From an uncultured Anaerolineales bacterium (GTDB lineage Bacteria > Chloroflexota > Anaerolineae > Anaerolineales > UBA11858), in contig CAYQQX010000004.1 of the NCBI GenBank assembly GCA_964419495.1, positions 5,165 through 69,164 on the forward strand: DNA of 64,000 bases. The letters run 5' to 3'. A program made the position numbers and the translations under genes. Shown in pieces: positions 46,289 to 63,554 of the stretch (position 1 is the stretch's first letter; the number at the start of each line of letters is the position of its first letter). The notes under the pieces were generated by a model that worked only from the letters and a program-made list of their open reading frames with translations, did not search any database and was not told the origin of the DNA.

Positions 46289-46409
46289 TAGGATTGCCCA
46301 GTCAGTATAACGATTCTATCTGGCAATGGCAATATAGCCAATCGATAACGCCACCCTAAAGGATGGCGTTATATCGAAATAGATTCAGTTTGAAAGACAG
46401 TCTTTGGGA

Positions 46410-46670: not shown

Positions 46671-46712
46671 TTATTTTCTCCTTCTAAAATATCAGATCCC
46701 TAAACCCAAGGC

Positions 46713-47508: not shown

Positions 47509-47742
47509 TCAAAAAACATATTTATATAGCAAGTAAGCAACTATGATCAAAAGTAATATGATAAGAAATAATATCTCATTAAATTTGGTCTCATCAAGTT
47601 TTATATAGCCACGCCTTTCACTTAGCTGGTTGGTTATGTTTACAGCATCAGATTTCCGGAGATTAGGATCTAGTGGTTCTTGTGTGTAGGAGAAATATCT
47701 ATCAGTGGGATTTTCTTGTTTTTCTTGACTATTCTTCGGCAT
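47509..47742 (-). CDS. Possible small membrane protein (very AT-rich)
   Basis: Track ORF 47509..47772 with an internal M at 47742. One C-terminal TM helix (ILFLIILLLIIVAYLLY). Weak coding signal. Confidence 0.25.
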   Translation of the reverse strand: MPKNSQEKQENPTDRYFSYTQEPLDPNLRKSDAVNITNQLSERRGYIKLDETKFNEILFLIILLLIIVAYLLYKYVF

Positions 47743-48031
47743 TGAGTTTTTCCTATAATATAAATAAAACACCCACCGCCATCATCGGGATGAGTGAAAT
47801 TTTCAGAGTTGCCTATTCCATTGTCGCCCCGATGGTGCGGGCTGATATGTTGGGGGCATTATAGCATACTGATATTTACACCATCTATATTTGTGAATAT
47901 CAATGTTAGGAGTTACACAGATGAAGTGAGTAACTCCTAAATATCACAAAAAAATAGGTCAATTTCCATATGAAGATACCATCTGCTCTTTTTTTACTTA
48001 CATGTTCATTAAGTGGACTCCGAAAAGCTCT

Positions 48032-48139
48032 TTAATTTCCTGTCATCCTGAAGTATCCTTCTCTGGCTAATCGTTGGGCATAGGCAGCGCCAATGCTGCT
48101 GGTGGCACCTGTGACAAAGGCTGTTGGTTTATCTATCAT
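48032..48139 (-). pseudogene. 5' stub of a short-chain dehydrogenase/reductase gene
   Basis: ATG at 48139 overlaps the upstream stop (ATGA). MIDKPTAFVTGATSSIGAAYAQRLAREGY (TGxxxxIG cofactor motif) diverges after that and stops after 35 codons. Confidence 0.6.
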
Positions 48140-49603: not shown

Positions 49604-50893
49604 TCATGCCTGAGGAATATTTTTCTTCTTGAGGATATTCTTCTGAACCCAAGTTGCCATTTGCCAGGCCGCTGCCCCGGCTAAGAGATAAAGAACCCAG
49701 TCAATAGGGATGCGGTAGCGGGGCATGTAGCCGACCACATAGTAGACTAGTGGAAATGTCCCCAAGGGGATTAGCAGTGCGACGCGCTGGGGGATTGTCA
49801 GAAGAGACCATATACGCCAAAATCCCAGGATCGCCAGCATCGTCAGTACGCTGACGCCCAAGGCAATCCCAAAATTGTAAGGGGGTCCAAACCAGACGTT
49901 GACAACGCGCAGCGCTGTCAATTTAGTGAATTCCACCGGATTTGTTTTGATCCATTCAAAGGCCTCGGTTTTAGCTTCCTGCATGTAAGCCATCTCGCCG
50001 ACTTCGCGCAATCTCATGGCATCTGCGATATGGGCTGCGGGATGGCGATGTTCATCACCCAGCGCGTCCATGATTTCCATTGTGGGGGCCGCGCCTTCAT
50101 GATTGCCCATGCGCAGCTCTAACCCAAAGTTGCTGCGGATAAAGAAGATTGAGTCGAAAGCGACGTAGTTGCGCCAGCCCCATGGGATGCTGGCTGCCAA
50201 AATTCCAACGATCACTACACCAGCGTAGGCCCACCTTTTCGAGTTTCGAGACCAGAACAATTCGAAAATCAAACAACCCAAGATGACAGTCAGCAAGGCT
50301 GGCTGCACATGAAACGCGACGCTGATTCCTACTCCTAAAAGCAGCGAACCACCCCAGGTGTAATGCTGATGATCCCAGCGCCGAAGGAAGGCGACCAAAA
50401 TAAAACCCATGGCGATCGCGGCCAGGTATTCTCCATGCCCCGGCCATTCGACGAACAGCGCGCCAGCAACACCACCAATGATCCCTGGTTGTATGCCCAA
50501 CCCCATCTTTTCTGATAACCAAGGCAGCAGCGCGTAGATAATCGAGCCAGTCAGGACCATGAGCTGCATGCTGCGAAGGCCGCCTAATGATGTCAATCCA
50601 TAGATGCGATAGATAAAGCTGACAAGATAAGGATAGATGGGCGGCAGATGCGCGGTGGGTCCTGTGGTGATCATATATGGGTTAGCGAAACCTTCACCAT
50701 TGAACAGCGAAATGGCGATGGAACTGAGTTCCCAGCCAGGGTTGGGGCGCATGTAGCGGCTGGGAATCTTTGATAACTCAGCGCTGCGAACCCTAAATGC
50801 TAGCATGAAGATCAGGATGAAGGCCATCACCTTAGGCTGGGTCAACCAACCTAAGGCTATCTGAGATTTTTCTCTAATTCTTAAATTCTTCAT
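49604..50893 (-). CDS. Polytopic membrane protein, GT-C (ArnT/PMT, GT39-like) glycosyltransferase candidate
   Basis: 429 aa with about 11 TM helices. The first loop NPGWELSSIAISLFNGEGFANPY resembles the GT39/GT83 DE-loop region. Weak assignment. Confidence 0.5.
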   Translation of the reverse strand: MKNLRIREKSQIALGWLTQPKVMAFILIFMLAFRVRSAELSKIPSRYMRPNPGWELSSIAISLFNGEGFANPYMITTGPTAHLPPIYPYLVSFIYRIYGLTSLGGLRSMQLMVLTGSIIYALLPWLSEKMGLGIQPGIIGGVAGALFVEWPGHGEYLAAIAMGFILVAFLRRWDHQHYTWGGSLLLGVGISVAFHVQPALLTVILGCLIFELFWSRNSKRWAYAGVVIVGILAASIPWGWRNYVAFDSIFFIRSNFGLELRMGNHEGAAPTMEIMDALGDEHRHPAAHIADAMRLREVGEMAYMQEAKTEAFEWIKTNPVEFTKLTALRVVNVWFGPPYNFGIALGVSVLTMLAILGFWRIWSLLTIPQRVALLIPLGTFPLVYYVVGYMPRYRIPIDWVLYLLAGAAAWQMATWVQKNILKKKNIPQA

Positions 50894-50929: not shown

Positions 50930-53900
50930 TCATTCCCCATTGTGGATCTTGATCGTTCCCGCGTTGCCATCAACGGTGATTGTCTGTCCGCTTTGAATGC
51001 GCTTTGTGGCCACACCCGTCCCCATGACAGCCGGGATGCCGAATTCACGGGCCACGATCGAGCCGTGGCTGAGCGGGCCACCAATATCGGTGACAACTGC
51101 AGCTGCCATTGAAAAGAGCGGCGTCCAAGCAGGGGTAGTGGTGTTTGCAACCAGAACATCACCTGGGCGCATCTGATCAAAATCCTCGGGGCCAAGCAGG
51201 ATTCGGGCTGGGGCTGTCACACTGCCAACACTGGTCGGCTCGCCTTTGAGCGTATCTCCTGTCTGCGACTCTCCCGTTTGTGCGATAAAAAGATCTGACT
51301 TGATGCCCATCATTCTTTCTTTGTAAGGTAGCATCGGGGGCGGAGTCTCATCTTTTGCGCGTTGCCAAAAATCCCTGCGTTCGGAAACGTGCCCCGCCAA
51401 TTTATCTACGCCTATGTCACTTTCCAGGTTCGCCACACAAAGATCAATCTCTTCCTTCTCCAGCCAAAAGACATCGTCCCTGGCGGTGATTGCTCCTGCG
51501 GAGACAAATCGATCTCCTAACTCGCGTAGCAGCTGGCGCAATTTGGGGAACGCCAATCCAATTTCTGCGATGGCGTCCTCGCGGACTTCGGCCATTTTTT
51601 GTCCCCAATTGAGCGCAGTGCGGAAGATCCAACCTTTAAGGCCCTTGACACGCCCCAGCATCTCCTGGGAAGTCTGAATTCGGATGGCTTCGTTCTTACG
51701 CTGACGTTCATAGGGGTTGCTGCCTTGGCCGCTGAGATATAGCTTGACCATTTCGAGCATCGGTTCAGGGTGATCAAGGGGTAGGTCATAGGCAAAGTCC
51801 ATTTGATAGATGATGTGACCAAACTGCTTCAGATGTTGATTGAATTTCTTTTGCAGCGCTTCAAATTCTTCGCAGTCGACCTCGGCGGGTGGACTACCAG
51901 CAGCGAGGAGTTTTGCAAGTGTTGTGGTGGGTGTCTGTTGGATATATGTGTTGAGAGCGGCTCTCTCACGGCACCACATGGCCAGATCGTAGAGCGACTT
52001 TTCTGAATGAATGGTGATGTTGTCCCAGCCCATCAAAAGCACGGTAGCGCTGGGGGCACCATCGTTTTGCGCCATTTTTTTGTAAACTCTAGTGAGCAGT
52101 CCTTCTGAACCTGCAGAGGCTCCCATGGTGGCAAACATAATTCCGCATAGATATGTCATCGCTTCGGCCACGATCTCTTGGGCTTGTGCCCAAAGATCGG
52201 CGACAGATAATTCACTGGGAACTATTTTTTCTATCTCTGCCGCATAGGCCTGGTATTCTGGGTGCAGCTCATCTCGCCAAATGGGGACAAGATTCTTGAG
52301 CAGTTTTGGATAGGCGGGCAGCATGCGCGTCAGCAGCCACCAGAAAGCTTTGGGCGGGTACGTTGAGTTCATGTAAGCATACGTGTTGATCTCAGTGAAG
52401 TAATCTTCTGCCAAAACGGGCTCTGAGCCCAACAAGCGTTTCCCGATTACGGGCATTTGTTGCTTGAAGGTGGGAATTCCCAACGTTAAGTAAAGCGGGC
52501 TCAGCGGGTCAGGCATTAAATCGACGATGCTGGCCCGCACGTAAGTGCCCTTAGGAGTAGGGGGTGCCCATTCGATGGCAGGGGCTTGGTCAGAATCCGG
52601 GGACGAGTCTGGGACGTCCAGCAGCACCGTTCCGTTGGTACCGTCGACAGTAATGGTCTGTCCATCCTGGATGCGCTTGGTTCCCACGCCTGAGCCCATC
52701 ACGGCGGGGATGCCGTATTCGCGCGCCACAATCGAGCCGTGGCTGAGCGGTCCGCCAACATCCGTGACCACCGCGGATGCCATGGCAAAGAGCGGCGTCC
52801 AGGCAGGCGTAGTCGTGGCCGCGACCAGCACATTGCCAGGTTTCATCTTGCCAAAGTCGGCGGGGCTGAGCAGTACACTGGCAGGCGCTGTCACAATGCC
52901 GGCACTCGTCGCCATACCGCTGAGAGTATCGCCCGCTTGTTCCTCGTCGGAGCCATGCACAAAGTGATCGGTTTTCATCCCTTTGACCCTTTTCTTCTTA
53001 GGGATGATGGGCGGCGGGGGCGAGTGGCTTACTCTTCCCGAAAATGCTTTGCGTGAATCCACACGACCCGAGAGACTCTCGGCGGTATTCCCGCTTTCAA
53101 GTTGCGCCAAGCTACCTTCAATTTCATCTTTCTCCAACCAGAAGATATCGTCTTTGTGTTGGACCCCGCCTGCATCGGCCAGACGCTGTCCCAGTTCGAG
53201 CAGCATGGCTCTCAATTGGGGATACCCGAGCCCGAGGTAGGCCAGGGCGTCATCGCGTGCTTCGGCGTTCGATTGGGCATAGTTGAGGGCCTTGGTAAAT
53301 GCCCACAGCCTGAAGCCTTTCAGACGCTGGAGTATGGCTTCCGTAGTCTCGACGCGCTTTGCTTCGCTGTTCTTCTGGCGCTGGTGTGGATCAGTTCCCT
53401 CACCGCGCAGGTACATCTTGATTATTTCCAGCATTGGCTCGGGATGTTCCAGCGGCAGCGGTTCGGCAAAGTCCAACGAGTAAATGATGTATCCATAGCG
53501 ATCCAAGTGAGATTGGAACCGGGAATCAAACTCGTCCCGTTGATCGATATCATCTCTCGAAGATCGTTGGGCCAATTCCTCTGTGGATGTCTCTAGAATA
53601 TGTCTGGCTAATTCATCGTGTTCTTTGATCCACATTGCCAGATCGAAAAGTGATTTTTCGGCCTTGACCGGGACGTTGTCGTAACCCATTAACAAAGTTG
53701 CTGCGGGCGGGTCTCCCTCACCCTGGGCCATTTTTTCGTAAACGCTTGTTAGAATGCCCTCAGAGCCGGCTGAATTTTTCATGGTGGAGTAGCGCAGCCC
53801 AGCCAGGTAATACATGGCCGCATCCAGAATTTCTTGCACATCTGTCCAAATTTCGTTTGAACTCATTTCGCCAGCCACTTTGTCTTTGTAAGCGGCGATC

Positions 53901-55189
53901 TTCTCTTGATATTCGGGCAGCATTTCATCTCGCCACATGGGAAGCAGGCGCATGATGCGCATAGTTGAGGGCAGCAGCCCGGTAAAGATCCAACGCACAG
54001 CTTCCGTGGGCACAGTTGTATTCATGTAGGCATAGCCGTTGATGGCCGTGAAATAATCCTTAGCAAAGGCCGGCTCGGAGCCCGTAATGCGCTCCGTCAT
54101 GGGGTAGGTTTGCTCAATCAATGCTGGCAGCCCTAAGGAAGCAAATAAAGGGCTCAACGGATCGGGCATCAGGTCGACGGCGCTGGTGCGCAGATAAACG
54201 CCCTTTGGATCAGGCGGCGACCAATCCAGGGGCGGATCGGGCAAAGCGGTTACCGGGCGCGCCTGCACGATGGCGAATTCGCCATCGGTCAGTGTCCACT
54301 CGATGTCCATAGGTATGCCATAAATTATTTCGATTTGATTTCCCAATTCTGTCAACTCAGCCGCCTGTTCATCGCTGAGGGCGGGGATATTTTGCAGATG
54401 TTCGGGAACGGGCTGTGTCTCAATACCGGAGTCTGTGGGCGCGGTTTGGATGCGTTTGGGGGCTAGCTCGCGGTTGATCACTGCACCCGAAGTTTTTTCT
54501 ACCGTGAAGGTGTCTGGCGTGACCTGACCTCCCACAATGGCTTCACCTAATCCCCAGGCGGCGTTGATCACGGCTTCGGCGCGCTGCCCGTTGAGCGGGT
54601 TGGCGGTGAACATGATCCCGGCTACCTCGGCGGGGATCATCGACTGCACAACCACGGCTAAGGCCACACCTTCAGACTCAATTTCTTGCCGCATGCGGTA
54701 GCCGATGGCGCGCCCTGTCCATAGCGAGGCCCAGCACTTTCTGACCGCCTCCAGAACTGCTTCTGGGCCGCGGACATTCAGGTAGGTTTCCTGCTGACCG
54801 GCAAAGGATGCCTCGGGTAAGTCTTCGGCAGTAGCCGACGAACGCACCGCCACAGCAGGGGAGTCAGTGCTGATTTGCGCATAGCCATCAAGGATGGCAT
54901 CTGCCAGGGATGGGGAAATCTCTCCAGCCAAGAACAGCTCATGGATTTCTTGAGATGCCGTCTCCAATGTTTGGGGGCTGGATAGATCTATGGGCGCAAG
55001 CGCACGCCGAATTCCAGGTTGCAGTTTGTTTTCTTTCACAAACAAGCGGTAAGCGTCTGTGGTGATGTGAAATCCGCCCGGAACCGGTAATCCGCCTCGG
55101 ATCAAGCGGGCCAGGGAAGCTCCTTTACCACCGACTGTTTCCAGCGTGGCTGCGGCGTTATCGAGGGGCAGTGTGTATTGATTAATCAT
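50930..55189 (-). CDS. Giant PEP-utilising (PEP synthase / rifampicin-phosphotransferase-like) enzyme: ATP-grasp head + two tandem [central + His-swivel] modules
   Basis: Start at M18 of the track ORF, behind GGAGA. PPDK_N motifs GGKGASLARL...PVPGGFHITTDAY. Two swivel domains carry GGPLSHGSIVAREYGIPAV and GGPLSHGSIVAREFGIPAV. The two ~550-aa units align end to end. Confidence 0.85.
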   Translation of the reverse strand: MINQYTLPLDNAAATLETVGGKGASLARLIRGGLPVPGGFHITTDAYRLFVKENKLQPGIRRALAPIDLSSPQTLETASQEIHELFLAGEISPSLADAILDGYAQISTDSPAVAVRSSATAEDLPEASFAGQQETYLNVRGPEAVLEAVRKCWASLWTGRAIGYRMRQEIESEGVALAVVVQSMIPAEVAGIMFTANPLNGQRAEAVINAAWGLGEAIVGGQVTPDTFTVEKTSGAVINRELAPKRIQTAPTDSGIETQPVPEHLQNIPALSDEQAAELTELGNQIEIIYGIPMDIEWTLTDGEFAIVQARPVTALPDPPLDWSPPDPKGVYLRTSAVDLMPDPLSPLFASLGLPALIEQTYPMTERITGSEPAFAKDYFTAINGYAYMNTTVPTEAVRWIFTGLLPSTMRIMRLLPMWRDEMLPEYQEKIAAYKDKVAGEMSSNEIWTDVQEILDAAMYYLAGLRYSTMKNSAGSEGILTSVYEKMAQGEGDPPAATLLMGYDNVPVKAEKSLFDLAMWIKEHDELARHILETSTEELAQRSSRDDIDQRDEFDSRFQSHLDRYGYIIYSLDFAEPLPLEHPEPMLEIIKMYLRGEGTDPHQRQKNSEAKRVETTEAILQRLKGFRLWAFTKALNYAQSNAEARDDALAYLGLGYPQLRAMLLELGQRLADAGGVQHKDDIFWLEKDEIEGSLAQLESGNTAESLSGRVDSRKAFSGRVSHSPPPPIIPKKKRVKGMKTDHFVHGSDEEQAGDTLSGMATSAGIVTAPASVLLSPADFGKMKPGNVLVAATTTPAWTPLFAMASAVVTDVGGPLSHGSIVAREYGIPAVMGSGVGTKRIQDGQTITVDGTNGTVLLDVPDSSPDSDQAPAIEWAPPTPKGTYVRASIVDLMPDPLSPLYLTLGIPTFKQQMPVIGKRLLGSEPVLAEDYFTEINTYAYMNSTYPPKAFWWLLTRMLPAYPKLLKNLVPIWRDELHPEYQAYAAEIEKIVPSELSVADLWAQAQEIVAEAMTYLCGIMFATMGASAGSEGLLTRVYKKMAQNDGAPSATVLLMGWDNITIHSEKSLYDLAMWCRERAALNTYIQQTPTTTLAKLLAAGSPPAEVDCEEFEALQKKFNQHLKQFGHIIYQMDFAYDLPLDHPEPMLEMVKLYLSGQGSNPYERQRKNEAIRIQTSQEMLGRVKGLKGWIFRTALNWGQKMAEVREDAIAEIGLAFPKLRQLLRELGDRFVSAGAITARDDVFWLEKEEIDLCVANLESDIGVDKLAGHVSERRDFWQRAKDETPPPMLPYKERMMGIKSDLFIAQTGESQTGDTLKGEPTSVGSVTAPARILLGPEDFDQMRPGDVLVANTTTPAWTPLFSMAAAVVTDIGGPLSHGSIVAREFGIPAVMGTGVATKRIQSGQTITVDGNAGTIKIHNGE

Positions 55190-55248
55190 TTCTATCTCCA
55201 AAAATACTATCAAAACGAACGATGGTCGCTTCTGTTGCAAAAAAATAT

Positions 55249-55842
55249 CTATGCCTGGATTCCTTTGAAGAAAATTTCCAGGGCATCCTCGAGCATTTCT
55301 TCCGGGCTGCCTGCGGGACGTGTGGTAAAGACAACCGGAGTCATAATGGCTAATAACGATTTCATTGCCACCGCGGCATTGATAGGCCGGATGCTGCCCT
55401 GGGCGATGCCCTCTTCAAGTAATTCGACCAGCATATCTTGGTAGGCGTATCGTTTAACCTGGTATCGCTGCTGACTCTCAGCGCTGAGGCTTTGTGCTGC
55501 CATAAAGAGCTTTAGGATGAAAGCCTTATCGCGCAGCAAAATTTCCAGGTGCATAAACATTACTTTTCTTAAACGCGTGAGTACATTTCCACCTTCTGCG
55601 ATGATCTGTTCGGCGCCTAGGTTGAGTTCATTGAGAGGCTCATCGAGTAAATAGAGAATAATTTCATCCTTGGTGGGAAAATAATCGTACAGGGAAGATT
55701 TACCCATGGAAGCAGCTTTTGCTATCTGGCTGACAGAGGTTTCAGTGAAACCATTCTCGAATATTAAGTCCGCGGCGATGTGTGCGATCTCTCGGCGCCG
55801 TTCTTCTCTTTCTTCTTTTGTGAGGGGAATACCTTTAGGCAT
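55249..55842 (-). CDS. TetR/AcrR family transcriptional regulator
   Basis: Start taken at M24 of the track ORF. HTH FTETSVSQIAKAASMGKSSLYDYFPTKDEI. Lies 59 nt upstream of the giant gene on the same strand. Confidence 0.85.
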   Translation of the reverse strand: MPKGIPLTKEEREERRREIAHIAADLIFENGFTETSVSQIAKAASMGKSSLYDYFPTKDEIILYLLDEPLNELNLGAEQIIAEGGNVLTRLRKVMFMHLEILLRDKAFILKLFMAAQSLSAESQQRYQVKRYAYQDMLVELLEEGIAQGSIRPINAAVAMKSLLAIMTPVVFTTRPAGSPEEMLEDALEIFFKGIQA

Positions 55843-56052
55843 AATTATGTCCTTTGAAACCGACCGTTGGTCGCTACTAGTGTATGCGATGTTGATTTTT
55901 GGCATACCCATATTATTTAGGGGTTGTATAAATTTATTTGACGATATTTGTCATGGTTTTATAGAGTATGTATATCGCATTCGACAGTTGTGAGCGTGAT
56001 AGAATGATGGTATCCATAGTTTCTCTTTGGTCGAATAAAATAGGAAATTACC

Positions 56053-57684
56053 ATGGCAACAAACGAAACCCTCAATTTGGGTGAAAAACTTTCTGACCTC
56101 GTTTTTTCCGTTCCAGTACGTATTAAAATCACCGGGATCATGATATTGCCGATAGCGATTTTAGGCTTGGCGCTTAATTATTGGATCCAGACAGGGCTTT
56201 CTGACTGGCTGTCATACTTATTGACGGATGAACGCGTTCAAATGGCCATGCAGGCTGGCAGCCGAAGTGTGAGTCTGGTAACCATGTTGTCGGCAGGTGC
56301 ATCAATTCTTTTGACCTCTCTCTTGATGTTGTCACTCACCAAACCTTTGCTGGAATTACGACAGGTTGCCCAGCGGGTAGCAGATGGCGATTTCGCTTCG
56401 CGAGCCAGGATATGGGTTCAAGATGAGATAGGGGAGGTAGCCCGAACGATCAATCTCATGCTGGATCGACTGGTTAGCAGTCAGGAAAAGCTAGAACGCA
56501 GCAACCGGCGCTTAGAGGCAATCAACCAGGTTGCTCTCGCGGCTGGTAAAGAGCTGGAACTTCAGGATGTTCTAGATGCATCTCTTAACTCGACGCTGAA
56601 TGTTTTTGGACTTGAAAGTGGCTGGATCTATATGCGCGATCCAACAGACCCGGGCGGGAGAAGTTTTCATCTGGCCAGCGCGGTCGCCTTACATGCTGAG
56701 TTGTATGCAGATATCACGGATGATTCGAAAGAAGTGTGTACATGCAAGCGTGGTCTGACGGGCAATGAAGTTGGCGCAGATGCACAAATTAACGTTTGTG
56801 CGAGATTGAAATTGTTAGTTGATGACTCGCACCAGGAAATTTTCCACATCACGATCCCCCTAGAGGCGCGTGCAGAACGATTTGGGATGATCAACCTGGT
56901 TTGTTTAGAAGATTCAAAACCATCGGAAAATGACATCGATACGCTGACCACCATTGGCGCACAAGTATCTGAATTAGTTGCCAATGCCTGGCTGCACGCA
57001 AGCTTGAAAGAAAAGGAAGCTGCGCGGCAAGGATTGCTGACGGCACTGGTAAACGCGCAGGAGAACGAGCAGGCTCGATTAGCTAGAGAACTGCATGATG
57101 ATGCGGGTCAGAGTCTAACCAGTTTGTTAATCCGCTTGAAAACCCTGGAGAATCGCGCCACTAGTGACGACATTCGGAGTAGCGTAGCTGAGTTGTGTAC
57201 AACAACTTCCGAAACAATTGAAAAAGTTCGCGGGGTCTCTCACCGTCTTCGACCAGCAGCATTAGAACAATTGGGCCTCGAAGTGGCTCTGCGCACTTTG
57301 GCCGAAGAAATGCTTGACGATATTGGTGCAAGTGTGGACTGCCAATTTCATCTGGATGGCAAGCGTTTTCCATTCGAGATCGAAACCAATTTGTATCGCA
57401 TTACCCAAGAAGCCCTGACGAACGTTGTCAGGCATGCTGGGGCTAAGAACGTTATCATAGAACTAGCAGTACAGCCCTTTGCGATTGGATTGCGCATTGA
57501 AGATGACGGTGTTGGGTTTGAAACCGACAAAATAACTACGAAAGAAACCCGACATCGCTTGGGCTTGATCAGTATGTTGGAGAGGGCGGAGATGTTGGGA
57601 GGATCAGTAGTATTCGATTCGGCTCCTGGTAAGGGAACCGCGCTAAATATTCATATCCCATATGATGTTGAGGATGAGTCTTAA
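56053..57684 (+). CDS. Sensor histidine kinase: 2 TM, HAMP, GAF, HisKA_3, HATPase_c (NarX/LiaS-type)
   Basis: 543 aa. HAMP VADGDFASRARIWVQDEIGEVARTINLMLDRL, H-box ARELHDDAGQSLT, and an ATPase part with EALTNVVRHAGA and DDGVGF. Confidence 0.9.
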   Translation: MATNETLNLGEKLSDLVFSVPVRIKITGIMILPIAILGLALNYWIQTGLSDWLSYLLTDERVQMAMQAGSRSVSLVTMLSAGASILLTSLLMLSLTKPLLELRQVAQRVADGDFASRARIWVQDEIGEVARTINLMLDRLVSSQEKLERSNRRLEAINQVALAAGKELELQDVLDASLNSTLNVFGLESGWIYMRDPTDPGGRSFHLASAVALHAELYADITDDSKEVCTCKRGLTGNEVGADAQINVCARLKLLVDDSHQEIFHITIPLEARAERFGMINLVCLEDSKPSENDIDTLTTIGAQVSELVANAWLHASLKEKEAARQGLLTALVNAQENEQARLARELHDDAGQSLTSLLIRLKTLENRATSDDIRSSVAELCTTTSETIEKVRGVSHRLRPAALEQLGLEVALRTLAEEMLDDIGASVDCQFHLDGKRFPFEIETNLYRITQEALTNVVRHAGAKNVIIELAVQPFAIGLRIEDDGVGFETDKITTKETRHRLGLISMLERAEMLGGSVVFDSAPGKGTALNIHIPYDVEDES

Positions 57685-58346
57685 TGACAGAAACACTTAT
57701 GCGCGTAATTTTGGTGGATGACCATCAGGTTTTACGAGAGGGTTTGCGTGCTCTCTTGGATGAAGAAGACGATATCCAGGTTGTTGCAGAAGCCGGCTCC
57801 GCAGATGAGGCCATAAAACAGGTTGTAGCCCATGATCCTGATATCGTGGTCATGGATCTGGGATTGCCCGACCGAAGCGGGTTAGATGCCATTAGACAAA
57901 TCCGGGCGGAGGAATATCCGGTGCGTATCATTGTGCTCTCCATGCACAGCGGACGTGAATTGGTCATGCAAGCTCTACAAGCTGGCAGCGATGGGTATGT
58001 GCCCAAATCATCGGCCCATACTGATCTACTGCAGGCTATTCGTGCCGTTCACCAGGGCAAACGCTTTTTGCACCCCGATGCGGCGACTGCAGTGGTTGAT
58101 GAGTTGCTTGAAAGGCAAGCCGAAGCCCAAATGCTGGAAAGCCTCTCTGAGCGAGAAACGGAAGTCTTGCGGCTGACCGCCATGGGATACACCAGCAGAG
58201 AAGTTGGGGACAAGTTGTCCTTGAGTCCAAAAACCGTTGACACGTACCGTCAACGGGCAATGGAGAAGTTGGATCTCAAACACCGTTCCGAAGTGATCCA
58301 ATTTGCATTGAAGGCTGGATTACTGGATGACATCGATCAAATCTAA
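57684..58346 (+). CDS. NarL/FixJ-family response regulator (receiver + LuxR HTH)
   Basis: 220 aa. Contains ILVDDHQVLREG and DIVVMDLGLPDRSG, with a C-terminal LSERETEVLRLTAMGYTSREVGDKLSLSPKTVDTYR. The start overlaps the kinase stop (TAATG). Confidence 0.9.
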   Translation: MTETLMRVILVDDHQVLREGLRALLDEEDDIQVVAEAGSADEAIKQVVAHDPDIVVMDLGLPDRSGLDAIRQIRAEEYPVRIIVLSMHSGRELVMQALQAGSDGYVPKSSAHTDLLQAIRAVHQGKRFLHPDAATAVVDELLERQAEAQMLESLSERETEVLRLTAMGYTSREVGDKLSLSPKTVDTYRQRAMEKLDLKHRSEVIQFALKAGLLDDIDQI

Positions 58347-58386
58347 CTTTGTCAGAAATTCCCTTACAAAAACAAGGTGTATTCCT

Positions 58387-58434
58387 GATAGATATAGAAC
58401 GATCAATTTGCTACGATAGAGATACACGCTGATC
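58387..58434 (+). promoter_or_regulatory. Direct repeat in the rdhA upstream region (candidate response-regulator site)
   Basis: GATAGATATAGAACGATC (58387-58404) and GATAGAGATACACGCTGATC (58415-58434), with repeat starts 28 nt apart, 17 nt upstream of the rdhA ATG. The functional link is inference. Confidence 0.3.
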
Positions 58435-58450
58435 TGTTTAGGAGACTTTA

Positions 58451-59842
58451 ATGGTAGATAGACGCAAAAATCCAATTAGCCGCAGAGATTTCTTGCGCAT
58501 TGCGGGATTATCCGCTTCAACGATTGCAACTGGAAATCTTTCCTCGGTGCCAAGTTTAGACTATTGGGCTCCAGATAATGTAGAAGGCGGGAATGCGCGC
58601 CCCTGGTGGGTGCGCACTGTCGATGAGCCAACAACTGAAGTAAACTGGGACAATGTAAAACGCTTCGATGCTCGTCGCACTGTGAGAGGGCAAGGCTTGG
58701 CCGAGTATATTGGACAGGATGAGGCGGATCGACTGAGCCAAATCAGAAGCCAAGTCCGAAAAAATCGTTTGGAAAATAATGTTCCCGGGTACACATTGAA
58801 GGATGAAGCGCTTAGTGCAGCACAGTCTACACACACTATTGGCAGCCGATCTTTCCTTGGACCTCAAAAAACCAAAACACCAGCTGAACGAGGTGTTTCA
58901 AATTGGGTTGGGACAGCCGATGAAGCTGCTCAAATTTTGCGATCAGCGATGCGCCATTTTGGTGCTGCTACTGTAGGGTTTGTCGAGCTCAATAAGAATA
59001 CTCGCAAACTAACTTATTCCTACGATCCGGATGAAAAAGAAATCGTTTTCGAAAACGTTGACGAAGCCTATGAAACTGACCAAAAGCGAGTGATTCCGGA
59101 CAAGGCAAAGTGGATGATCGTATTTACTGTTCAAATGTCATCAGAAAGCTTGAAGCGAGCCCCGACAGTGGTCGCTGAGCAAACGACAAGGTTATCCTAT
59201 GCCCGAGCTTTAGATATTCAAAACAAAACCCAAGAGTTCTTGCGTGGGTTGGGGTATCAGTGTTTGGGACAGGCCAGCAGCAATGCATTAGGCATCTCGC
59301 CCGCATTTGCCGTCTTGGCCGGATTAGGGGAGCTGGGACGGCACAACCGCTTGATTACGCCAGAATTTGGCCCCATGGTGCGCGTGTTCAAAATGATCAC
59401 TGACCTGCGAGTTCAACCGGATAAACCCATTGATGCCGGGATATTGAAATTTTGCCAGCACTGTAAAAAGTGCGCTGAAGCCTGTCCGGCCAGTGCTCTG
59501 AGTCTCGATGATGAACCGTCTTGGGAAATTCAGGGAGACTGGAATAACCCTGGCCATAAAGCCTATTTCGAAGACTCGATAAAGTGCCGAACATATCAAT
59601 GGGAAAGTGCGGGAACCAATTGCGGCATTTGTTTTGCCGTATGCCCCTTTGCAAAGAAAAACAAGGTTTGGATCCATCAGTGGGCAAAAGCGGGTATTTC
59701 CACATTCCCAGTGATAGATGGCTTACTCCGCAGTATGGATGATGCTTTCAGTTATGGGGCGCAAAAAGACCCGGAAGCATGGTGGGGTTTGGATCTGCCT
59801 GAATATGGCATCGATACAGAACAAACCACGAACGATGAATAA
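58451..59842 (+). CDS. rdhA: Reductive dehalogenase catalytic subunit homolog, Tat-exported
   Basis: 463 aa. Twin-arginine signal SRRDFLRIAGLSAS, RPWWVRTVD, LGELGRHNRLITPEFGP, and Fe-S motifs CQHCKKCAEACP and CGICFAVCPF. Confidence 0.9.
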   Translation: MVDRRKNPISRRDFLRIAGLSASTIATGNLSSVPSLDYWAPDNVEGGNARPWWVRTVDEPTTEVNWDNVKRFDARRTVRGQGLAEYIGQDEADRLSQIRSQVRKNRLENNVPGYTLKDEALSAAQSTHTIGSRSFLGPQKTKTPAERGVSNWVGTADEAAQILRSAMRHFGAATVGFVELNKNTRKLTYSYDPDEKEIVFENVDEAYETDQKRVIPDKAKWMIVFTVQMSSESLKRAPTVVAEQTTRLSYARALDIQNKTQEFLRGLGYQCLGQASSNALGISPAFAVLAGLGELGRHNRLITPEFGPMVRVFKMITDLRVQPDKPIDAGILKFCQHCKKCAEACPASALSLDDEPSWEIQGDWNNPGHKAYFEDSIKCRTYQWESAGTNCGICFAVCPFAKKNKVWIHQWAKAGISTFPVIDGLLRSMDDAFSYGAQKDPEAWWGLDLPEYGIDTEQTTNDE

Positions 59843-60071
59843 CCGCGAAAACGACGATTGTAAAGATTTTATCTTGATCGAGCGCAGACCTTGGTATGAG
59901 TGGGTATTGTGGGGATTTTGGGTGTTTCTGGAAATCATATTTTTCCAGGCCGCAGTTGCCAGCAGCAAAGAGCTTGAACCTCGGGCAGCGATAGTATTCT
60001 GGTTGCTTTTTGGCGTATTTTTGCTGGGGGGAATTACAGTTTGGATCATTCGCCGTGAGCGACTGATCTGA
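59835..60071 (+). CDS. rdhB: RdhB-like small membrane anchor
   Basis: ATG at 59835 overlaps the rdhA stop by 8 nt. 78 aa with two TM helices. RPWYEW...SSKELEPRAA resembles the RdhB pattern as I recall it. Confidence 0.65.
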   Translation: MNNRENDDCKDFILIERRPWYEWVLWGFWVFLEIIFFQAAVASSKELEPRAAIVFWLLFGVFLLGGITVWIIRRERLI

Positions 60072-60160
60072 AACATAAACTTCTGACGACAACAAAAAAC
60101 GCTAAACATGACACATCTCGGAATTAATTGAATTAGTCAATGGAAGGTTGAACAAATCTG

Positions 60161-60221
60161 CCCCCCTAACCCCCCAACCCTTCGATATCACTCAGGGCAA
60201 GCCTTGGGAGGTTAGGGGGGG
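60161..60221. repeat. GC-rich palindromic repeat (same family as 13290-13372)
   Basis: Arms cccccctaaccccccaa (60161-60177) and ttgggaggttagggggg (60204-60220). The core cccttcgatatcactcagggcaag matches the reverse complement of 13331-13360. Confidence 0.75.
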
Positions 60222-60263
60222 CTTACTCCCGAATACTCTTTTCATCTGCGTAACTCCAAATTT

Positions 60264-60386
60264 CAGTAGATCACGATTTTGTGTCATTGCGAGGCGTTTC
60301 ATGCCGAAGCAATCCCCCTCTAAAGGGTGGAGATTGCTTCACTCCGTTCGCAATGACATCCATAATTGGGAATCTGTGATCTACTG
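60264..60386. repeat. 123-bp nested inverted-repeat (MITE-like) element
   Basis: Outer 11-bp inverted repeat cagtagatcac (60264-60274) / gtgatctactg (60376-60386). Inner arms gtcattgcgaggcgtttcatgccgaagcaatc / gattgcttcactccgttcgcaatgac. Confidence 0.7.
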
Positions 60387-60558
60387 AATTTATTTAATAT
60401 GGAGTGCCTAATATTTTGTTTGTCAGGTAAACCCCTACAAATCAGGGGGCTTTTCCCGCTACACCGAAATGCCCCCCTTTGCTAAGATGATAGTGCAATA
60501 ATTCACTCATCATCGCTCCCGTCGCAAGTGCAGACGTGTACGTGCAGAGGACATCTTT

Positions 60559-62325
60559 ATGAAGCGCTTTTTTGGAAAAATCCGCCGATTTTTCTATCCA
60601 GCACCGGAAGCCTCTCGCTGGGTAAAACTCCTTCCCTATGCAGTCCTAATTGCCCTATTTGTTATCGTCCTGATTGCAGGTGCCTACGCCTGGGACTATA
60701 CCAACTCCACAGAATTTTGCGGTTCAGCCTGTCACGGCATCCACCCTGGGGAAATCCTTGCCTATCAGACCTCGCCCCACGCAGAAGTCAAGTGTGTCGA
60801 ATGCCACATCGGGCGCGCCTTCATTGGTAACCAGGTCTCTCGAAAAATTGGGGAATTCCGGCATTTCACTGCGGCTGCGTTCAAGAGTTATGAATACCCC
60901 TTACATGTCAAAAGCCTAAGACCTGCCAGAGAGGTTTGTGAGCTTTGTCATAACCCAGATAAGTTTTCCGACGACAGCCAACGGGTAATCCATCACTATG
61001 GTTCGGATGCGGATAATACGCTGGAGAGGACGTATCTGGTCATGAAAACCGGTGGAGGCACCGTACGCCAGGGCCTGGGGGATGGTATCCATTGGCATAT
61101 CAAAAATAAGGTGCTTTATTACCCAACGGACGAAACCGAGCAAGAAATACCCTTTATCAAAGTTTTTGATGAAGAGTACAGCGCCGTGTATGAATACGTC
61201 GATGTCAGTTCAGATTTTAATCCTTTTTCAATTGATGAATCGGATCTCAAGGAAATGGACTGCATCACCTGTCATAACCGTATCTCTCATTTCTTCCCCA
61301 ATCCCGAAGAAGCGGTCGATAGCGCCCTTTCGCGAAATCTAATTTCTAGCGAAATACCTGAAATTCGACGTAAAGCTGTCGAGGTTTTAAACGCCTCCTA
61401 TGAGTCGAAAGAAAAAGCCCTCAGGGATATCGATGTGTTGCGAAATTACTATCGGGACAATTATGCTGATTACCAGCAGGACCACATCGATGAGATCGAT
61501 CAGGCAATCAAGGCTATTAAAGATATTTACAAGCAAAGCGTATTCCCTGACCAATTAGTGGATTGGAATACGCATCCCAATAATCTGGGACACATGAATG
61601 ACCCTGGGTGCTTCCGCTGCCATGATGGCAAGCATTTGGATATTGCAGGATACGCCGTTCGCCTGGAGTGTAATTTATGCCATGCCATCCCGGCGATCAC
61701 AGGGCCTGAAGATCTAGAAACCCAGATACTCATCAGCCATGAGCCGCAGCCTAAAAGCCATCACAATCCCAACTGGATTGCCCTGCATCGCTTCGTCTAT
61801 GACGAGGTGGATGAAAATGAATACTGCAGCGAGTGTCACGATGTGAGCAATTTTGGGGAAGCCGATAACTCATCTTTTTGCTCAAATTCCGCCTGCCACC
61901 ACCAAACCTGGGAGAACGTTCAACTAGATTTCCTTGATAATGGTGATGTATTCGAAAAGATTGTGCGTCAGTTATCCCATTATCCGACGACATTAGATCC
62001 AATCGCGGCCTGGGTGGAAGAACCTGACCTTGATGAGATCCACAGGGAACAGGAAGAAATGCTCTGTGAGGATTGTCATACCGAATGGCCACCCATGGGA
62101 CCACCATCCAACGAGATTTGCATCGAATGTCATGGGGAGAGCCTGACTGGGTTTGAAGAACTAACCGCCATGTACGAACCCAACCCGCATGACTCGCATT
62201 ATGGAGAAGATTACCCTTGTGCTGAGTGTCATCCCAATTTCAGCCCCATGGAACCGGTTGAATCTTGCGCCTTTTGTCATGTGATGGAAGATATCAAATT
62301 AATCGAAGAAACATCTTCTCAATAG
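60559..62325 (+). CDS. Membrane-anchored multihaem cytochrome c with NapC/NirT/NrfH-like N-terminus (up to 12 haems)
   Basis: 588 aa with an N-terminal TM helix. Ten CxxCH motifs (CVECH, CELCH, CITCH, CFRCH, CNLCH, CSECH, CEDCH, CIECH, CAECH, CAFCH), plus CGSACH (Cx3CH) and CSNSACH (Cx4CH). Confidence 0.85.
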   Translation: MKRFFGKIRRFFYPAPEASRWVKLLPYAVLIALFVIVLIAGAYAWDYTNSTEFCGSACHGIHPGEILAYQTSPHAEVKCVECHIGRAFIGNQVSRKIGEFRHFTAAAFKSYEYPLHVKSLRPAREVCELCHNPDKFSDDSQRVIHHYGSDADNTLERTYLVMKTGGGTVRQGLGDGIHWHIKNKVLYYPTDETEQEIPFIKVFDEEYSAVYEYVDVSSDFNPFSIDESDLKEMDCITCHNRISHFFPNPEEAVDSALSRNLISSEIPEIRRKAVEVLNASYESKEKALRDIDVLRNYYRDNYADYQQDHIDEIDQAIKAIKDIYKQSVFPDQLVDWNTHPNNLGHMNDPGCFRCHDGKHLDIAGYAVRLECNLCHAIPAITGPEDLETQILISHEPQPKSHHNPNWIALHRFVYDEVDENEYCSECHDVSNFGEADNSSFCSNSACHHQTWENVQLDFLDNGDVFEKIVRQLSHYPTTLDPIAAWVEEPDLDEIHREQEEMLCEDCHTEWPPMGPPSNEICIECHGESLTGFEELTAMYEPNPHDSHYGEDYPCAECHPNFSPMEPVESCAFCHVMEDIKLIEETSSQ

Positions 62326-62335
62326 GAGAAAAAAT

Positions 62336-62518
62336 ATGTTTGGACTGGGTCCTACCGAATTAATCATCATTCTCGTAATTGTCATTGTTCTGTTTGGTGT
62401 GGGTCGCGTGAGCAAAATTGGTGGAGAGCTAGGGTCTGCAATCCGAGAATTTCGAAAAGGCGTCTCACGCGACGATGAGACAGATGCCGAAGAATCAACC
62501 CAAGAGGCAGCAGGTTAG
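62336..62518 (+). CDS. tatA: Twin-arginine translocase subunit TatA
   Basis: 60 aa. MFGLGPTELIIILVIVIVLFGVGRVSKIGGELGSAIREFRKG. Confidence 0.9.
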   Translation: MFGLGPTELIIILVIVIVLFGVGRVSKIGGELGSAIREFRKGVSRDDETDAEESTQEAAG

Positions 62519-62561
62519 ATGACAGTCACTTAGCAAGTGACTGTCATCTCGAGGTTTTTTT
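62518..62561 (+). terminator. 13-bp perfect hairpin plus T7 tract between tatA and tatC (partial terminator/processing or translational element)
   Basis: gatgacagtcact (62518-62530), loop tagca, agtgactgtcatc (62536-62548), then tcgagg and ttttttt (62555-62561) directly before the tatC ATG. GAGG at 62551-62554 would be the tatC RBS. Confidence 0.45.
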
Positions 62562-63332
62562 ATGACCACCGAAGAACAAGCAAATTTAGCCGAAGGTATC
62601 AGTCAAAAGCGTCAGGCTTTTTGGGGGCACATGGAGGAGCTTCGCCGACGATTGTTAAAGGCGGTGATAGTGCTGATCCTCGCTTCAGGGGTTAGTTTAG
62701 TTTTTGTAAAACGTGGATTAGAGTTCTTGCTGCTTCCTATGGGAGAAAACCGACCCGTCGCCCTTCACCCAACTGAGTCGATCGTTGTTTATTTCCGCAT
62801 CGCACTGATGCTGGGCTTGGTGATTGCCATGCCGGTGATGGTTTACCAGGTATTGGCATTCTTTGTGCCCGCGCTGACCCGCAGCGAGCGCAGGGTGCTG
62901 CTGACCTCTGTGGTTGGCATTGGCATCTTCTTTGCGCTGGGCGTGGCGTTTGCAGGTGGGGTGATGCTGCCCTTGGCGATCAATTATTTGCAGGGCTTCA
63001 TGGATGATCTGGTTCAGCCGACATATTCGATTGATGGCTACGTCTCATTCGTTACGACAGTGATGATCAGCAGTGGTGTGATATTCGAAACTCCCTTGTT
63101 ATTGGCCTTAGTCGCTCGCATGGGCCTGGTCACATCAAAGCAATTAGCTAAGGGTAGGCGCTTTGCTCTGGTCGCCATCGCCATCATCGCGGCAGTAATT
63201 ACGCCAACGCCAGATATGTTCAATATGCTGCTCGTGATGGCGCCCCTTTTGGTGCTTTATGAACTTGGCATTGTGCTGGCCTGGTTTGCTGGACGAGCGC
63301 GCGAGAGAGCATTAGCCGAGGTCGGAGTTTGA
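62562..63332 (+). CDS. tatC: Twin-arginine translocase subunit TatC
   Basis: 256 aa, six TM helices, with a typical TatC N-terminus (FWGHMEELRRRLLKAV). Confidence 0.9.
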   Translation: MTTEEQANLAEGISQKRQAFWGHMEELRRRLLKAVIVLILASGVSLVFVKRGLEFLLLPMGENRPVALHPTESIVVYFRIALMLGLVIAMPVMVYQVLAFFVPALTRSERRVLLTSVVGIGIFFALGVAFAGGVMLPLAINYLQGFMDDLVQPTYSIDGYVSFVTTVMISSGVIFETPLLLALVARMGLVTSKQLAKGRRFALVAIAIIAAVITPTPDMFNMLLVMAPLLVLYELGIVLAWFAGRARERALAEVGV

Positions 63333-63341
63333 GGTATTGAT

Positions 63342-63554
63342 ATGAAATTCTTTAGCTTAGGTGCTAGTGAATTAATACTGATTTTGATTTTTGCCATTTT
63401 GGCAGTTGGGCCTAAAGAAACCATTCGCTTAGCCAGTCAGGCTCGCGACGCAATTGGGACCGTCCAAAAAGCTTTCAACGAATTATCGGGTGAAGTATCG
63501 CGCATGGCCTCAGATGTTGTCAGCGATATTAACGAGACTGAGAAGAAAAATTGA
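63342..63554 (+). CDS. tatB: TatA/TatB-family subunit (TatB-like)
   Basis: 70 aa. MKFFSLGASELILILIFAILAVGPKE, then an amphipathic helix. GP after the TM is as in TatB. Confidence 0.7.
   Translation: MKFFSLGASELILILIFAILAVGPKETIRLASQARDAIGTVQKAFNELSGEVSRMASDVVSDINETEKKN

Follow-up and report, generated by a model that had tools for sequence, protein, structure and literature searches.

A two-component-linked reductive dehalogenase cassette and its putative operator in uncultured Anaerolineae

Genes and conservation of the rdhAB cassette

A stretch of 64,000 nucleotides from an uncultured Anaerolineales bacterium (contig CAYQQX010000004.1, positions 5,165 to 69,164; hereafter the window, to which all coordinates refer) carries four consecutive forward-strand genes for a two-component system, a reductive dehalogenase homologue (RdhA) and a putative membrane anchor (RdhB). 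The first gene (56053-57684, 543 amino acids, ending in TAA) was recognized by Pfam, NCBIfam and hydropathy as a sensor histidine kinase with HisKA_3 (48.4 bits) and HATPase_c (48.2 bits) domains, and its layout is a first transmembrane helix (TM1, residues 24-42), an outside loop of about 30 residues, a second helix (TM2, 75-93), HAMP (90-141), GAF (about 160-310), HisKA_3 (339-404) and HATPase_c. It is followed by a NarL/LuxR-type response regulator (57684-58346, 220 amino acids) composed of a receiver domain (REC; Response_reg, 100.2 bits) and a GerE helix-turn-helix (62.7 bits), by rdhA (58451-59842, 463 amino acids), predicted to encode a corrinoid/Fe-S reductive dehalogenase homologue exported by twin-arginine translocation (Tat), and by a gene for an RdhB-like anchor of 78 amino acids with two transmembrane helices (59835-60071), whose start is the internal ATG at 59835. 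The coordinates of all four genes were confirmed as exact against the open reading frame table and the sequence, and the junctions described in an earlier reading of this DNA (the original prediction) are equally exact: the final A of the kinase TAA is the first A of the regulator ATG (cttaATGac), which gives the TAATG overlap, the gap between regulator and rdhA is 104 nt (58347-58450), and rdhA and rdhB overlap by 8 nt (ATGAATAA). The identities that had been proposed for the four genes are likewise upheld. At a probability of about 70%, we regard this locus as an Anaerolineales respiratory-type reductive dehalogenase module under the control of its own co-inherited NarL-family two-component system, acting by the mechanism proposed below.

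RdhA scored 288.7 bits against the NCBIfam model TIGR02486 (cutoff 160.35) and 127.6 bits against PF13486 of Pfam (cutoff 24.3), whereas the QueG model TIGR00276 gave just 42.8 bits (cutoff 200); kinship with the epoxyqueuosine reductase QueG, which the original prediction had named as an example of what would speak against a dehalogenase, is thus not what the family models indicate. The motifs SRRDFLR, RPWWV, CQHCKKCAEACP and C-x11-CGICFAVCP are all present and are invariant or nearly so in 23 relatives, in which R11, R12 and F14 of the Tat signal (SRRDFLRIAG) and the Fe-S cysteines C335, C338, C341 and C345 as well as C379, C391, C394 and C398 do not vary. The closest solved structure is PceA of S. 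multivorans (4UQU, 187.7 bits), followed by PceA of D. hafniense (8Q4H, 144.3 bits). Y246, N272 and R305 of the S. multivorans PceA, counted along the alignment, correspond to Y250, N278 and R311 of RdhA, all invariant in the same 23 sequences, and catalytic roles have been described for the tyrosine and the arginine.(PMC10624902) With its Tat signal, its PWWV-type and both Fe-S motifs and the catalytic Tyr/Arg pair in place, RdhA looks like a functional respiratory-type reductive dehalogenase homologue, in agreement with what had been supposed. The menaquinone-pocket residues of D. hafniense PceA, K489, H495, R499, D515 and Y520,(PMC10624902) have counterparts in K402, H409, K413, D430 and Y435 of RdhA when an inferred numbering offset of 48 is used, and these are invariant or at least 90% conserved; it has also been reported that the pocket residues are kept in quinone-independent dehalogenases.(PMC10624902) No cobalamin riboswitch was found with Rfam, either at gathering thresholds over the whole window or at E-value thresholds over 58300-60600, the same scans gave no known RNA family, and there are no cobalamin genes among the annotated genes of the 64-kb window. 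Corrinoid binding by itself leaves no simple motif in a protein sequence.

The RdhB-like protein has an RPWYEW motif ahead of its first helix and an ELEPRAA sequence in the outside loop, which is where the ExE motif of RdhB proteins is located;(PMC10624902) E46 does not vary, and E48 is kept in at least 90% of sequences. In a profile comparison (hhalign) with the canonical RdhB of locus L020, which has three transmembrane helices, it aligned over TM2-TM3 with a probability of 50.6% (E 1.6e-4), a precomputed Pfam match to VcrB (PF27193) is marked as weak, and its alignment profile had no match among the PDB sequences, PceB included. RdhB proteins of about 75 amino acids with two transmembrane helices are known in Dehalogenimonas.(PMC13390414)

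In a species-level scan (one genome per species) 197 relatives were found, and the best 80 of these 197, each from a different genome record, were analysed. They span Anaerolineales, Promineifilaceae, Ardenticatenaceae, Caldilineaceae, Aggregatilineales, Thermoflexales, Ca. Desulfolinea, Ca. Flexifilum and similar groups, and a few of them are labelled as other phyla. A search with RdhA itself gave over 120 clusters that are 58-80% identical to it along the whole protein, those with names being metagenome-assembled genomes (MAGs) of Anaerolineales, Anaerolineae or Chloroflexota; the best match (80%) came from an Anaerolineales MAG from 150 m in the Black Sea, and the identical protein occurs on JGI and ENA metagenome contigs with the gene order unchanged. 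When the window proteins were compared with the 80 loci by tblastn, the kinase and the regulator were found upstream of rdhA on the same strand in 59 of the 63 loci that have at least 2.7 kb of upstream flank, and with a more divergent kinase in two further loci; the two-component genes were absent beside rdhA only in two MAGs, both labelled Acidobacteriota. An rdhB-like gene with the same motifs lies directly downstream of rdhA in 62 of 75 loci, those lacking it belonging mostly to the Aggregatilineales/Flexifilum clade. The identity to the window proteins co-varies across loci (r = 0.83 between RdhA and kinase, r = 0.77 between RdhA and regulator), and because of this co-variation and the near-universal synteny the four genes can be considered to evolve as one unit. 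Judged by gene order and sequence, rdhAB and the two-component genes are a four-gene cassette kept almost unchanged across Anaerolineae.

In a different view, RdhA is a conserved corrinoid/Fe-S reductase whose substrate in the periplasm is non-halogenated or belongs to housekeeping metabolism, and this would account for an ortholog-like conservation throughout the class. The range of 58-80% identity over so many clusters, together with a mean column identity of 69% in the alignment of relatives, is unusually tight, no two of the 80 loci share a genome record, as opposed to the 1-13 further rdhA genes described near two-component clusters in Dehalogenimonas,(PMC13390414) and dehalogenation by Anaerolineae is unconfirmed according to PMC9303371. 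On the other hand, RdhA lies far above the cutoff of the reductive dehalogenase family and far below that of QueG, the Tyr/Asn/Arg set of PceA is invariant, and the predicted Tat export, the ExE-bearing RdhB and an operator held in common with canonical rdhAB-rdhC paralogues in L020 and L042 fit respiratory dehalogenases; moreover, an Anaerolineae MAG with reductive dehalogenase genes has been reported, in a 2025 preprint, from a marine culture that dechlorinates tetrachloroethene.(10.1101/2025.05.17.654656) We therefore regard a non-dehalogenating function as quite unlikely. The tight conservation suggests a common natural substrate.

The order of the genes raised another possibility, that of a Dehalococcoidia-type rdhAB with RdhS/RdhP regulators, one of the many variable and often horizontally acquired rdh loci of that class. 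A two-component system beside rdhAB is indeed typical of Dehalococcoides and Dehalogenimonas,(PMC12961961, PMC13390414) as had been stated at the outset, and the likeness extends to a Tat-exported RdhA and to a small RdhB with two or three transmembrane helices; dcpB, for instance, measures 228 bp, and the regulatory role of rdhS/rdhP has been inferred from adjacency.(PMC12961961, PMC13390414) The affiliation that this implied did not stand, since all close relatives of RdhA, of the kinase and of the cytochrome described below are from Anaerolineae, and the kinase has two transmembrane helices with HAMP and GAF domains, whereas the kinases of Dehalococcoides and Dehalogenimonas have no transmembrane helix.(PMC13390414) Furthermore, the cassette co-diverges as a unit where Dehalococcoidia carry many variable paralogues, it is flanked by ordinary chromosomal genes (MutL, TilS, Sir2, ABC transporters), a scan of the window for the tRNA or tmRNA genes of an ssrA-type island found none, and the organism encodes multihaem cytochromes, one of them under the same operator, which in this locus is defined and common to the cytochrome-tat operon. 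This comparison covers host, kinase, cassette and operator. On the available sequence evidence the host class is Anaerolineae, and the Dehalococcoidia interpretation is contradicted and extremely improbable.

Some of the relatives depart from the common pattern. In a divergent sub-family (L061-L077, from Aggregatilineales, Ca. Flexifilum and related groups) the kinase is 33-36% identical and lacks the cysteines of the GAF domain while keeping the TM1-loop-TM2-HAMP part, and in L061 and L067 a divergent membrane protein of 123-124 amino acids is encoded between the regulator and rdhA, in place of a downstream rdhB. Members of the family also occur in MAGs of other phyla, namely Acidobacteriota (L074 and L079, both with rdhAB and no two-component genes), Cyclobacteriaceae (L025) and Nitriliruptoraceae (L071), and these out-of-phylum members could reflect mis-binning or horizontal transfer. 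In the window a TetR-family regulator gene (55249-55911, reverse strand) is divergent from the kinase gene; it recurs in the closest relative (L001) and on the identical metagenome contigs and not in distant loci, and as it is conserved only in the closest relatives it was rejected as part of the unit, outside which it probably stands.

The operator-promoter element and the cytochrome-tat operon

When the gaps between regulator and rdhA were lined up across loci, a conserved element became apparent, which in the window forms operator-promoter 1 (58350-58417, forward strand; supported by pattern, nhmmer profile and cross-locus conservation). Its arms are TGTCAGAAAT (58350-58359) and TATTCCTGATA (58380-58390) with an inner CCTTACA element, and it continues into a TG-extended -10 sequence, TTTGC followed by TACGAT (58412-58417), and then a Shine-Dalgarno sequence AGGAG (58440-58444). 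A second copy, operator-promoter 2 (60421-60488, forward strand; pattern and nhmmer), lies downstream of rdhB and reads TGTCAGGTAAACCCCTACAAA, then CTTTTCCCGCTACA, then TTTGC and TAAGAT (60483-60488), in the same register, with 62 nt from TGTCAG to the -10 in both copies, whose alignment runs on through a TTTGCTAnGAT motif. A degenerate pattern has exactly two matches in the 64 kb (58350-58386 and 60421-60457), where shuffled sequences lead one to expect 0, and the nhmmer profile detects the same two places (58349-58428, E 5.4e-11; 60420-60495, E 4.5e-14). Across the 80 loci this profile finds the box upstream of rdhA in 50; it precedes the cytochrome gene in all 9 of the related loci having that gene, and it also precedes a second, 26%-identical rdhA in L020 and L042. 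In these two loci (9671-14060 and 9835-11799, respectively) the second operator comes after the conserved rdhAB and is followed by the different rdhA with a canonical rdhB of three transmembrane helices, and in L020 this second rdhAB is succeeded by an RdhC-like FMN_bind/Fer4_5 membrane protein and ApbE. Locus L043 (5950-9401) contains a tandem duplication of the conserved rdhAB, each copy with its own operator in front. In the L061-L077 loci, by comparison, the box profile had no significant match.

The consensus of 44 instances is nTGTCAGgAAAAnccCtACAaAa-N9-tTTTCCcGaTAcc-N14-tttGnTAnnnT, and the register of TAnnnT is fixed in 44 of 44. Complementarity of the outer 11-nt arms holds in 75% of cells, whereas the nine inner positions pair in 24%, which is the level of chance, and for this reason the element is read as a protein operator and not as a hairpin; a hairpin or attenuator was considered and rejected, as the spacer does not pair. 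The 17-nt spacer would place the end of the proximal arm at the -35 position, a geometry expected of an activator-dependent promoter. A generic scan for sigma-70 promoters and terminators flagged none at rdhA or at the cytochrome gene, so that cross-locus conservation was relied on for the promoters; the terminator scan of the window returned fewer terminators than in shuffles. Upstream of the kinase gene there are two ordinary promoter-like sites (55938-56008).

It could be argued that the inverted repeat is bound by another regulator, or acts in the transcript as a hairpin or terminator, while the adjacent two-component system controls other targets. The tie between regulator and box is indirect, the TetR gene is divergently placed upstream both here and in L001, and in L020, L028, L057 and L065 the whole element is a near-perfect palindrome with 17-nt arms that could fold. 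However, from locus to locus the box is accompanied by no conserved regulator other than this two-component pair, the TetR gene being confined to the closest relatives, and it is only the outer 11 nt that are complementary and conserved as sequence, at a distance to TAnnnT that is fixed as would fit a promoter element. GerE-type regulators such as NarL, DosR and LuxR bind inverted repeats as dimers. Another binder or a transcript structure is thus distinctly improbable, and the two-component system very probably regulates rdhAB, as near-universal synteny and the conserved operator in the 58347-58450 gap lead us to believe.

The second operator extends the unit beyond the range originally proposed, 56053-60071, which holds for the four genes and not for its end, because the operator copy adds a cytochrome-tat operon (60421-63554). 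This operon begins with a gene for a membrane-anchored multihaem cytochrome c (60559-62325, forward strand, 588 amino acids) and continues on the same strand with TatA (62336-62518, 60 amino acids; PF02416, 50.4 bits; syntenic in related loci), TatC (62562-63332, 256 amino acids, six transmembrane helices by hydropathy; PF00902, 190 bits; also supported by synteny) and a second TatA/TatB-like protein (63342-63554, 70 amino acids, transmembrane helix 4-22), which has a weak PF02416 match (E 0.022) and is syntenic in L001, L002, L003, L006, L007, L010, L011 and L034. The cytochrome has a single N-terminal transmembrane helix (24-42), a NapC/NirT-type N-terminus and a c3/c7-type C-terminus, with matches to Cytochrom_NNT (PF03264, 30.1 bits, cutoff 24.1) and Cytochrom_c3_2 (46.6 bits), and it contains 10 CxxCH haem motifs and 2 atypical ones (CGSACH, CSNSACH), the first of them at residues 54, 79 and 127; the haem and helix counts are kept in 10 orthologues. 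It resembles the NapC/NirT/NrfH proteins in being anchored in the membrane at its N-terminus and in having a tetrahaem NapC/NirT region that passes the Pfam cutoff, and it differs from them in its length, its 10-12 haem motifs, its c3/c7-type extension and its linkage to rdhAB and tat instead of nap, nir or nrf; its score against the NrfH model TIGR03153 is 41.5 bits, under the cutoff of 134.2, and there is no nrfA near the gene.

The cytochrome family is very large in Anaerolineae, and the subgroup of 580-600 amino acids to which the window protein belongs adjoins rdhAB in 9 loci. The family as a whole was rejected as rdh-specific, given its abundant paralogues in Rieske/cytochrome b clusters, and only this subgroup appears rdh-linked; beyond the 9 loci, at least 10 more of its members come with a longest contig equal in length to that of RdhA or kinase matches. 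The protein is best described as a respiratory-chain-type, presumably quinol-linked cytochrome that one clade seems to have put under the rdh operator. A paralogue of about 565 amino acids (L084-L087) is found in a large cluster, among genes for multihaem cytochromes, for b-type cytochromes (Ni_hydr_CYTB proteins) and for a Rieske/cytochrome b complex that has a multihaem c fused to it, and these clusters are flanked by other pairs of HisKA_3 kinase and GerE regulator, the kinase carrying HAMP in L084 and L085; NarL-type two-component genes beside respiratory modules thus seem to be a recurring theme in Anaerolineae. In L082 (5109-6875; JGI 3300009374) an otherwise identical cytochrome gene is called as two open reading frames of 165 and 404 amino acids, which points to a frameshift or to a variant within the population.

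The stretch from rdhB to the second operator contains two strong nested hairpins (60160-60222 and 60259-60391, forward strand), the region 60160-60391 being made of inverted repeats with a predicted fold of -99.2 kcal/mol (z = -7.0) and no family in Rfam. As rdhB and the box are separated by only about 68 nt in L001, this region is regarded as an insertion in the window, and the hairpins are possibly a terminator, a stabiliser of the transcript or its 3'-untranslated region, or an inserted repeat resembling a miniature inverted-repeat transposable element.

The kinase and its candidate signal

The original prediction gave the kinase an extracytoplasmic loop of about 45 amino acids, which hydropathy shortens to about 30, and a cytoplasmic GAF domain, which proved real. 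In the window kinase GAF_2 scores 24.4 bits, under the Pfam cutoff of 28.6, and the isolated region had no match in NCBIfam; nevertheless, nearly all kinase homologues carry precomputed GAF, GAF_2 or GAF_3 matches, and an AlphaFold model of residues 140-330, built with 61 sequences (pLDDT, the model's own confidence score, 82.3), finds its best structural matches among solved GAF domains, including GAF-A of DosS, with TM-scores of 0.6-0.7 and E values of about 1e-7.

Conservation along the kinase bears on where the signal is perceived, which had been placed inside the cell or in the membrane. In an alignment of 68 sequences conservation is highest in TM1-loop-TM2, where the column mean is 0.71-0.76 as compared with 0.68 for HisKA_3 and 0.57 for HATPase, and this module, VPVRIKI.GI..LP..ILG..LNYW..TGLSDWLSYLLTDERV..AM.AGSRSV, is recognisable even in the divergent clade of 33-36% identical kinases. 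The GAF region is less conserved than the membrane module, and in the main clade it carries C229-x-C231-x17-C249; these cysteines are present in 87%, 79% and 91% of the 68 sequences, respectively, while in the set of 61 sequences C249 is invariant and C229, C231 and H265 reach at least 90%, and C284 is conserved in 65%. The cysteines are absent from the divergent Aggregatilineales/Flexifilum clade. In the model the Cys/His residues would be situated in the helical lid between beta-2 and beta-3 and on a beta-strand, the place where GAF domains bind their ligands. Both locations of the earlier proposal thus keep a part, with conservation ranking the membrane module first and the GAF domain second. 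This order argues for perception in or at the membrane, where the kinase might respond to a hydrophobic organohalide, to the quinone pool or to RdhAB as a complex, and the Cys/His site suggests an added redox input. Tentatively, and with confidence well short of even, we favour as the signal a membrane-perceived cue tied to organohalide availability or RdhAB activity, for which the GAF site would serve as a redox gate.

The same architecture may be read without any role of organohalides in sensing, the kinase responding purely to redox state or anaerobiosis like AirS, NreB and DosS. In such a sensor a Cys/His-bound Fe-S cluster, a metal or a thiol switch in the GAF domain, or the quinone pool sensed by the transmembrane helices, would turn on the oxygen-sensitive dehalogenase and the genes for export and electron transfer under anoxia. 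AirS (YhcS) and NreB are likewise NarL-family kinase-regulator pairs with HisKA_3, and the conserved C-x-C-x17-C spacing is that of the last three ligands of the [2Fe-2S] motif of S. aureus AirS, C-x7-C-x-C-x17-C.(PMC4601167) The position of the Cys/His residues in the modelled GAF fold and the presence of DosS GAF-A among its matches are compatible with such a sensor, as is the occurrence of the family in facultative or aerobic lineages (Caldilineaceae, Ardenticatenaceae, Promineifilaceae), where gating by anoxia would make sense; NarL-type genes also flank the other respiratory clusters mentioned above. In contrast to AirS, the first cysteine is missing, the position 8 residues upstream not being Cys in any clade, and transmembrane helices and HAMP are present; conserved H265 or C284 may substitute for the missing ligand. 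Moreover, as the Aggregatilineales/Flexifilum clade keeps the cassette and the membrane module without these cysteines, the Cys site cannot be the universal sensor. A purely redox-sensing kinase is somewhat unlikely, and it is the foremost alternative to our proposal.

Perception at the membrane also invites comparison with the intramembrane-sensing kinases LiaS and VraS, which have two transmembrane helices, a short outside loop, HAMP and HisKA_3. Signal input to kinases of this type often comes through a membrane partner. The present kinase differs from them by its extra GAF domain, by a score of its core against the LiaS model (88.3 bits) that is far below the equivalog cutoff of 450, and by the lack of a LiaF-like partner, the only conserved membrane neighbour being RdhB.

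Proposed mechanism, precedents and meaning

In the mechanism that we propose, the kinase would reside in the membrane, where a cue at the TM1-short loop-TM2 module, passed through HAMP and the GAF domain with its three cysteines and one histidine, would set autophosphorylation of HisKA_3. The phosphorylated REC-GerE regulator would then bind the 11-nt inverted repeat (TGTCAGGAAAA ... TTTTCCYGATA), the promoter-proximal arm of which abuts the -35 position of the TG-extended -10 promoter, and activate transcription of the two operons that carry the operator here, rdhAB and the NapC/NrfH-like multihaem cytochrome with tatA-tatC-tatB. The Tat system would export RdhA loaded with its cofactors, and at the membrane's outer face RdhA would dock on the two-helix RdhB through the ExE loop and reduce an organohalide, most likely with electrons from menaquinol at the RdhA-RdhB interface, as in PceA2B2, and with the co-regulated cytochrome as an additional or alternative quinol-linked route. 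Regulator binding and activation, the electron path and the signal are the steps that we infer; observed are the genes with their domains, synteny and co-divergence, the operator with its fixed register and its occurrence twice in the window, and the conservation of catalytic and interface residues.

A number of points weigh against this proposal. For an RdhA, a class-wide identity of 58-80% is unusual and would allow for a non-xenobiotic, even non-halogenated substrate, the conserved interface residues are compatible with menaquinol use and fall short of proving it, and the RdhB was assigned from weak sequence similarity. The promoters were assigned from the conserved TAnnnT and its spacing, at sites that the generic sigma-70 consensus scan did not flag for either rdhA or the cytochrome gene; no box lies upstream of the kinase gene, and what ties operator and regulator together is their co-occurrence. 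Finally, linkage of the cytochrome-tat operon to rdhAB is confined to the closest clade, which is marine, and paralogues of the cytochrome serve general respiratory clusters.

The closest functional precedent is PceS/PceP (TCS2) of Sulfurospirillum, for which two-component control of an rdh regulon has been shown experimentally, with an element at several promoters (pceAB, electron-transfer and accessory operons) that mostly overlaps the -35, and with a two-component operon that is itself expressed without the element at its usual position.(PMC7755780) The locus described here would likewise combine one two-component system with one cis element for more than one operon. The differences are that PceP is of the OmpR type and has a direct repeat, CTATW-N17-CTATW, whereas the regulator here is of the NarL/GerE type with a putative operator in the form of an 11-nt inverted repeat with a 19-nt spacer, and that the PceSP regulon includes norcobamide synthesis and a NapGH-like quinol dehydrogenase in place of the NapC-like multihaem cytochrome and the Tat genes. 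With the menaquinol:organohalide oxidoreductase PceA2B2 of D. hafniense (8Q4H) the module has counterparts for the catalytic Tyr/Arg, the two Fe-S clusters, the ExE loop and the polar residues of the menaquinone pocket; by contrast, the two helices of RdhB here would correspond to TM2-TM3 of PceB, neither pceC nor pceT is present, RdhA appears nearer to PceA of S. multivorans by the bit scores given above, and there is an extra multihaem cytochrome that is predicted to be co-regulated.

The remainder of the window holds several features that stand apart from the cassette. A protein of 1436 amino acids (50930-55240, reverse strand), in which one PPDK_N domain is accompanied by two mobile domains of the PEP-utilizers type, resembles a phosphoenolpyruvate-utilising enzyme that has undergone tandem duplication within itself; it has two smaller neighbours on the same strand (49604-50893 and 48136-49206), one with another mobile domain, and L001 has a 59%-identical match to it, over more than half of the query, at the same position relative to the rdh cassette. 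A tyrosine-recombinase gene of the phage integrase family (42104-43024, reverse strand) and then a region of lower G+C (44000-48000, 0.41-0.45), which encodes leucine-rich repeat, metallo-beta-lactamase-fold and DinB-like proteins, may together represent a small integrated element. A second GAF kinase (32142-33410, reverse strand; GAF 78.7 bits, HisKA-type, without HAMP) and a REC-only-type regulator near it (34452-35264, reverse strand) are both unrelated to the rdh cassette. The region 13000-19000 has low G+C (0.41) and a strong positive GC skew and encodes a seven-transmembrane-receptor histidine kinase (HisKA_7TM and HisKA_2) and a REC-PAS protein, and downstream of GH114- and GH123-like glycoside hydrolase genes there are six consecutive same-strand open reading frames (5236-12795, reverse strand, 179-663 amino acids) with no Pfam match at E <= 1e-5.

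Genes for RdhA in Anaerolineae have been known as annotations,(PMC4959059) and are mentioned as such in the work of Fincker et al. 2020 in so far as it is cited in PMC9303371, and for the ocean a recent survey names Anaerolineae as the main hosts of rdh genes among Chloroflexota.(bioRxiv 10.1101/2025.05.17.654656) How these genes are regulated was not described in the literature searched, which included PMC12219181, PMC11748557 and reviews on Chloroflexota. With its NarL-type regulator and its putative sensing at the membrane, the system described here is a variant of the two-component control already known for rdhAB, and what distinguishes it is the combination of a membrane HAMP-GAF kinase with a NarL-type regulator, an inverted-repeat operator, class-wide conservation outside Dehalococcoidia and, in one clade, coupling to a cytochrome and to Tat genes. 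A bolder version of this proposal, which we think unlikely, is that of an ancient, vertically inherited Anaerolineae regulon in which an intramembrane-type kinase, instead of a periplasmic or cytoplasmic receptor that binds a ligand, reads the state of RdhAB or the menaquinone pool together with an undescribed redox centre of three cysteines and one histidine in the GAF domain, and to which the marine clade has added a cytochrome route feeding RdhA outside the membrane; if true, organohalide respiration would have a third kind of electron-transfer chain, in addition to menaquinol-PceAB and the quinone-independent complex of Dehalococcoides.

In conclusion, a two-component system beside rdhAB is not a sign of Dehalococcoidia, and the conserved four-gene unit can be used as a marker. 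The defined operator and promoter, of about 40 bp, make the regulation directly testable, and the proposed regulon names candidate partners of the dehalogenase, which for the marine clade are the multihaem cytochrome and the Tat genes and for other loci RdhC/ApbE and additional rdhA genes. A common natural substrate, as suggested by the tight conservation of RdhA, would be relevant to halogen cycling in marine and wastewater environments. No paradigm is broken by these findings; rather, an uncultured and abundant group gains a concrete and testable regulatory and respiratory module.

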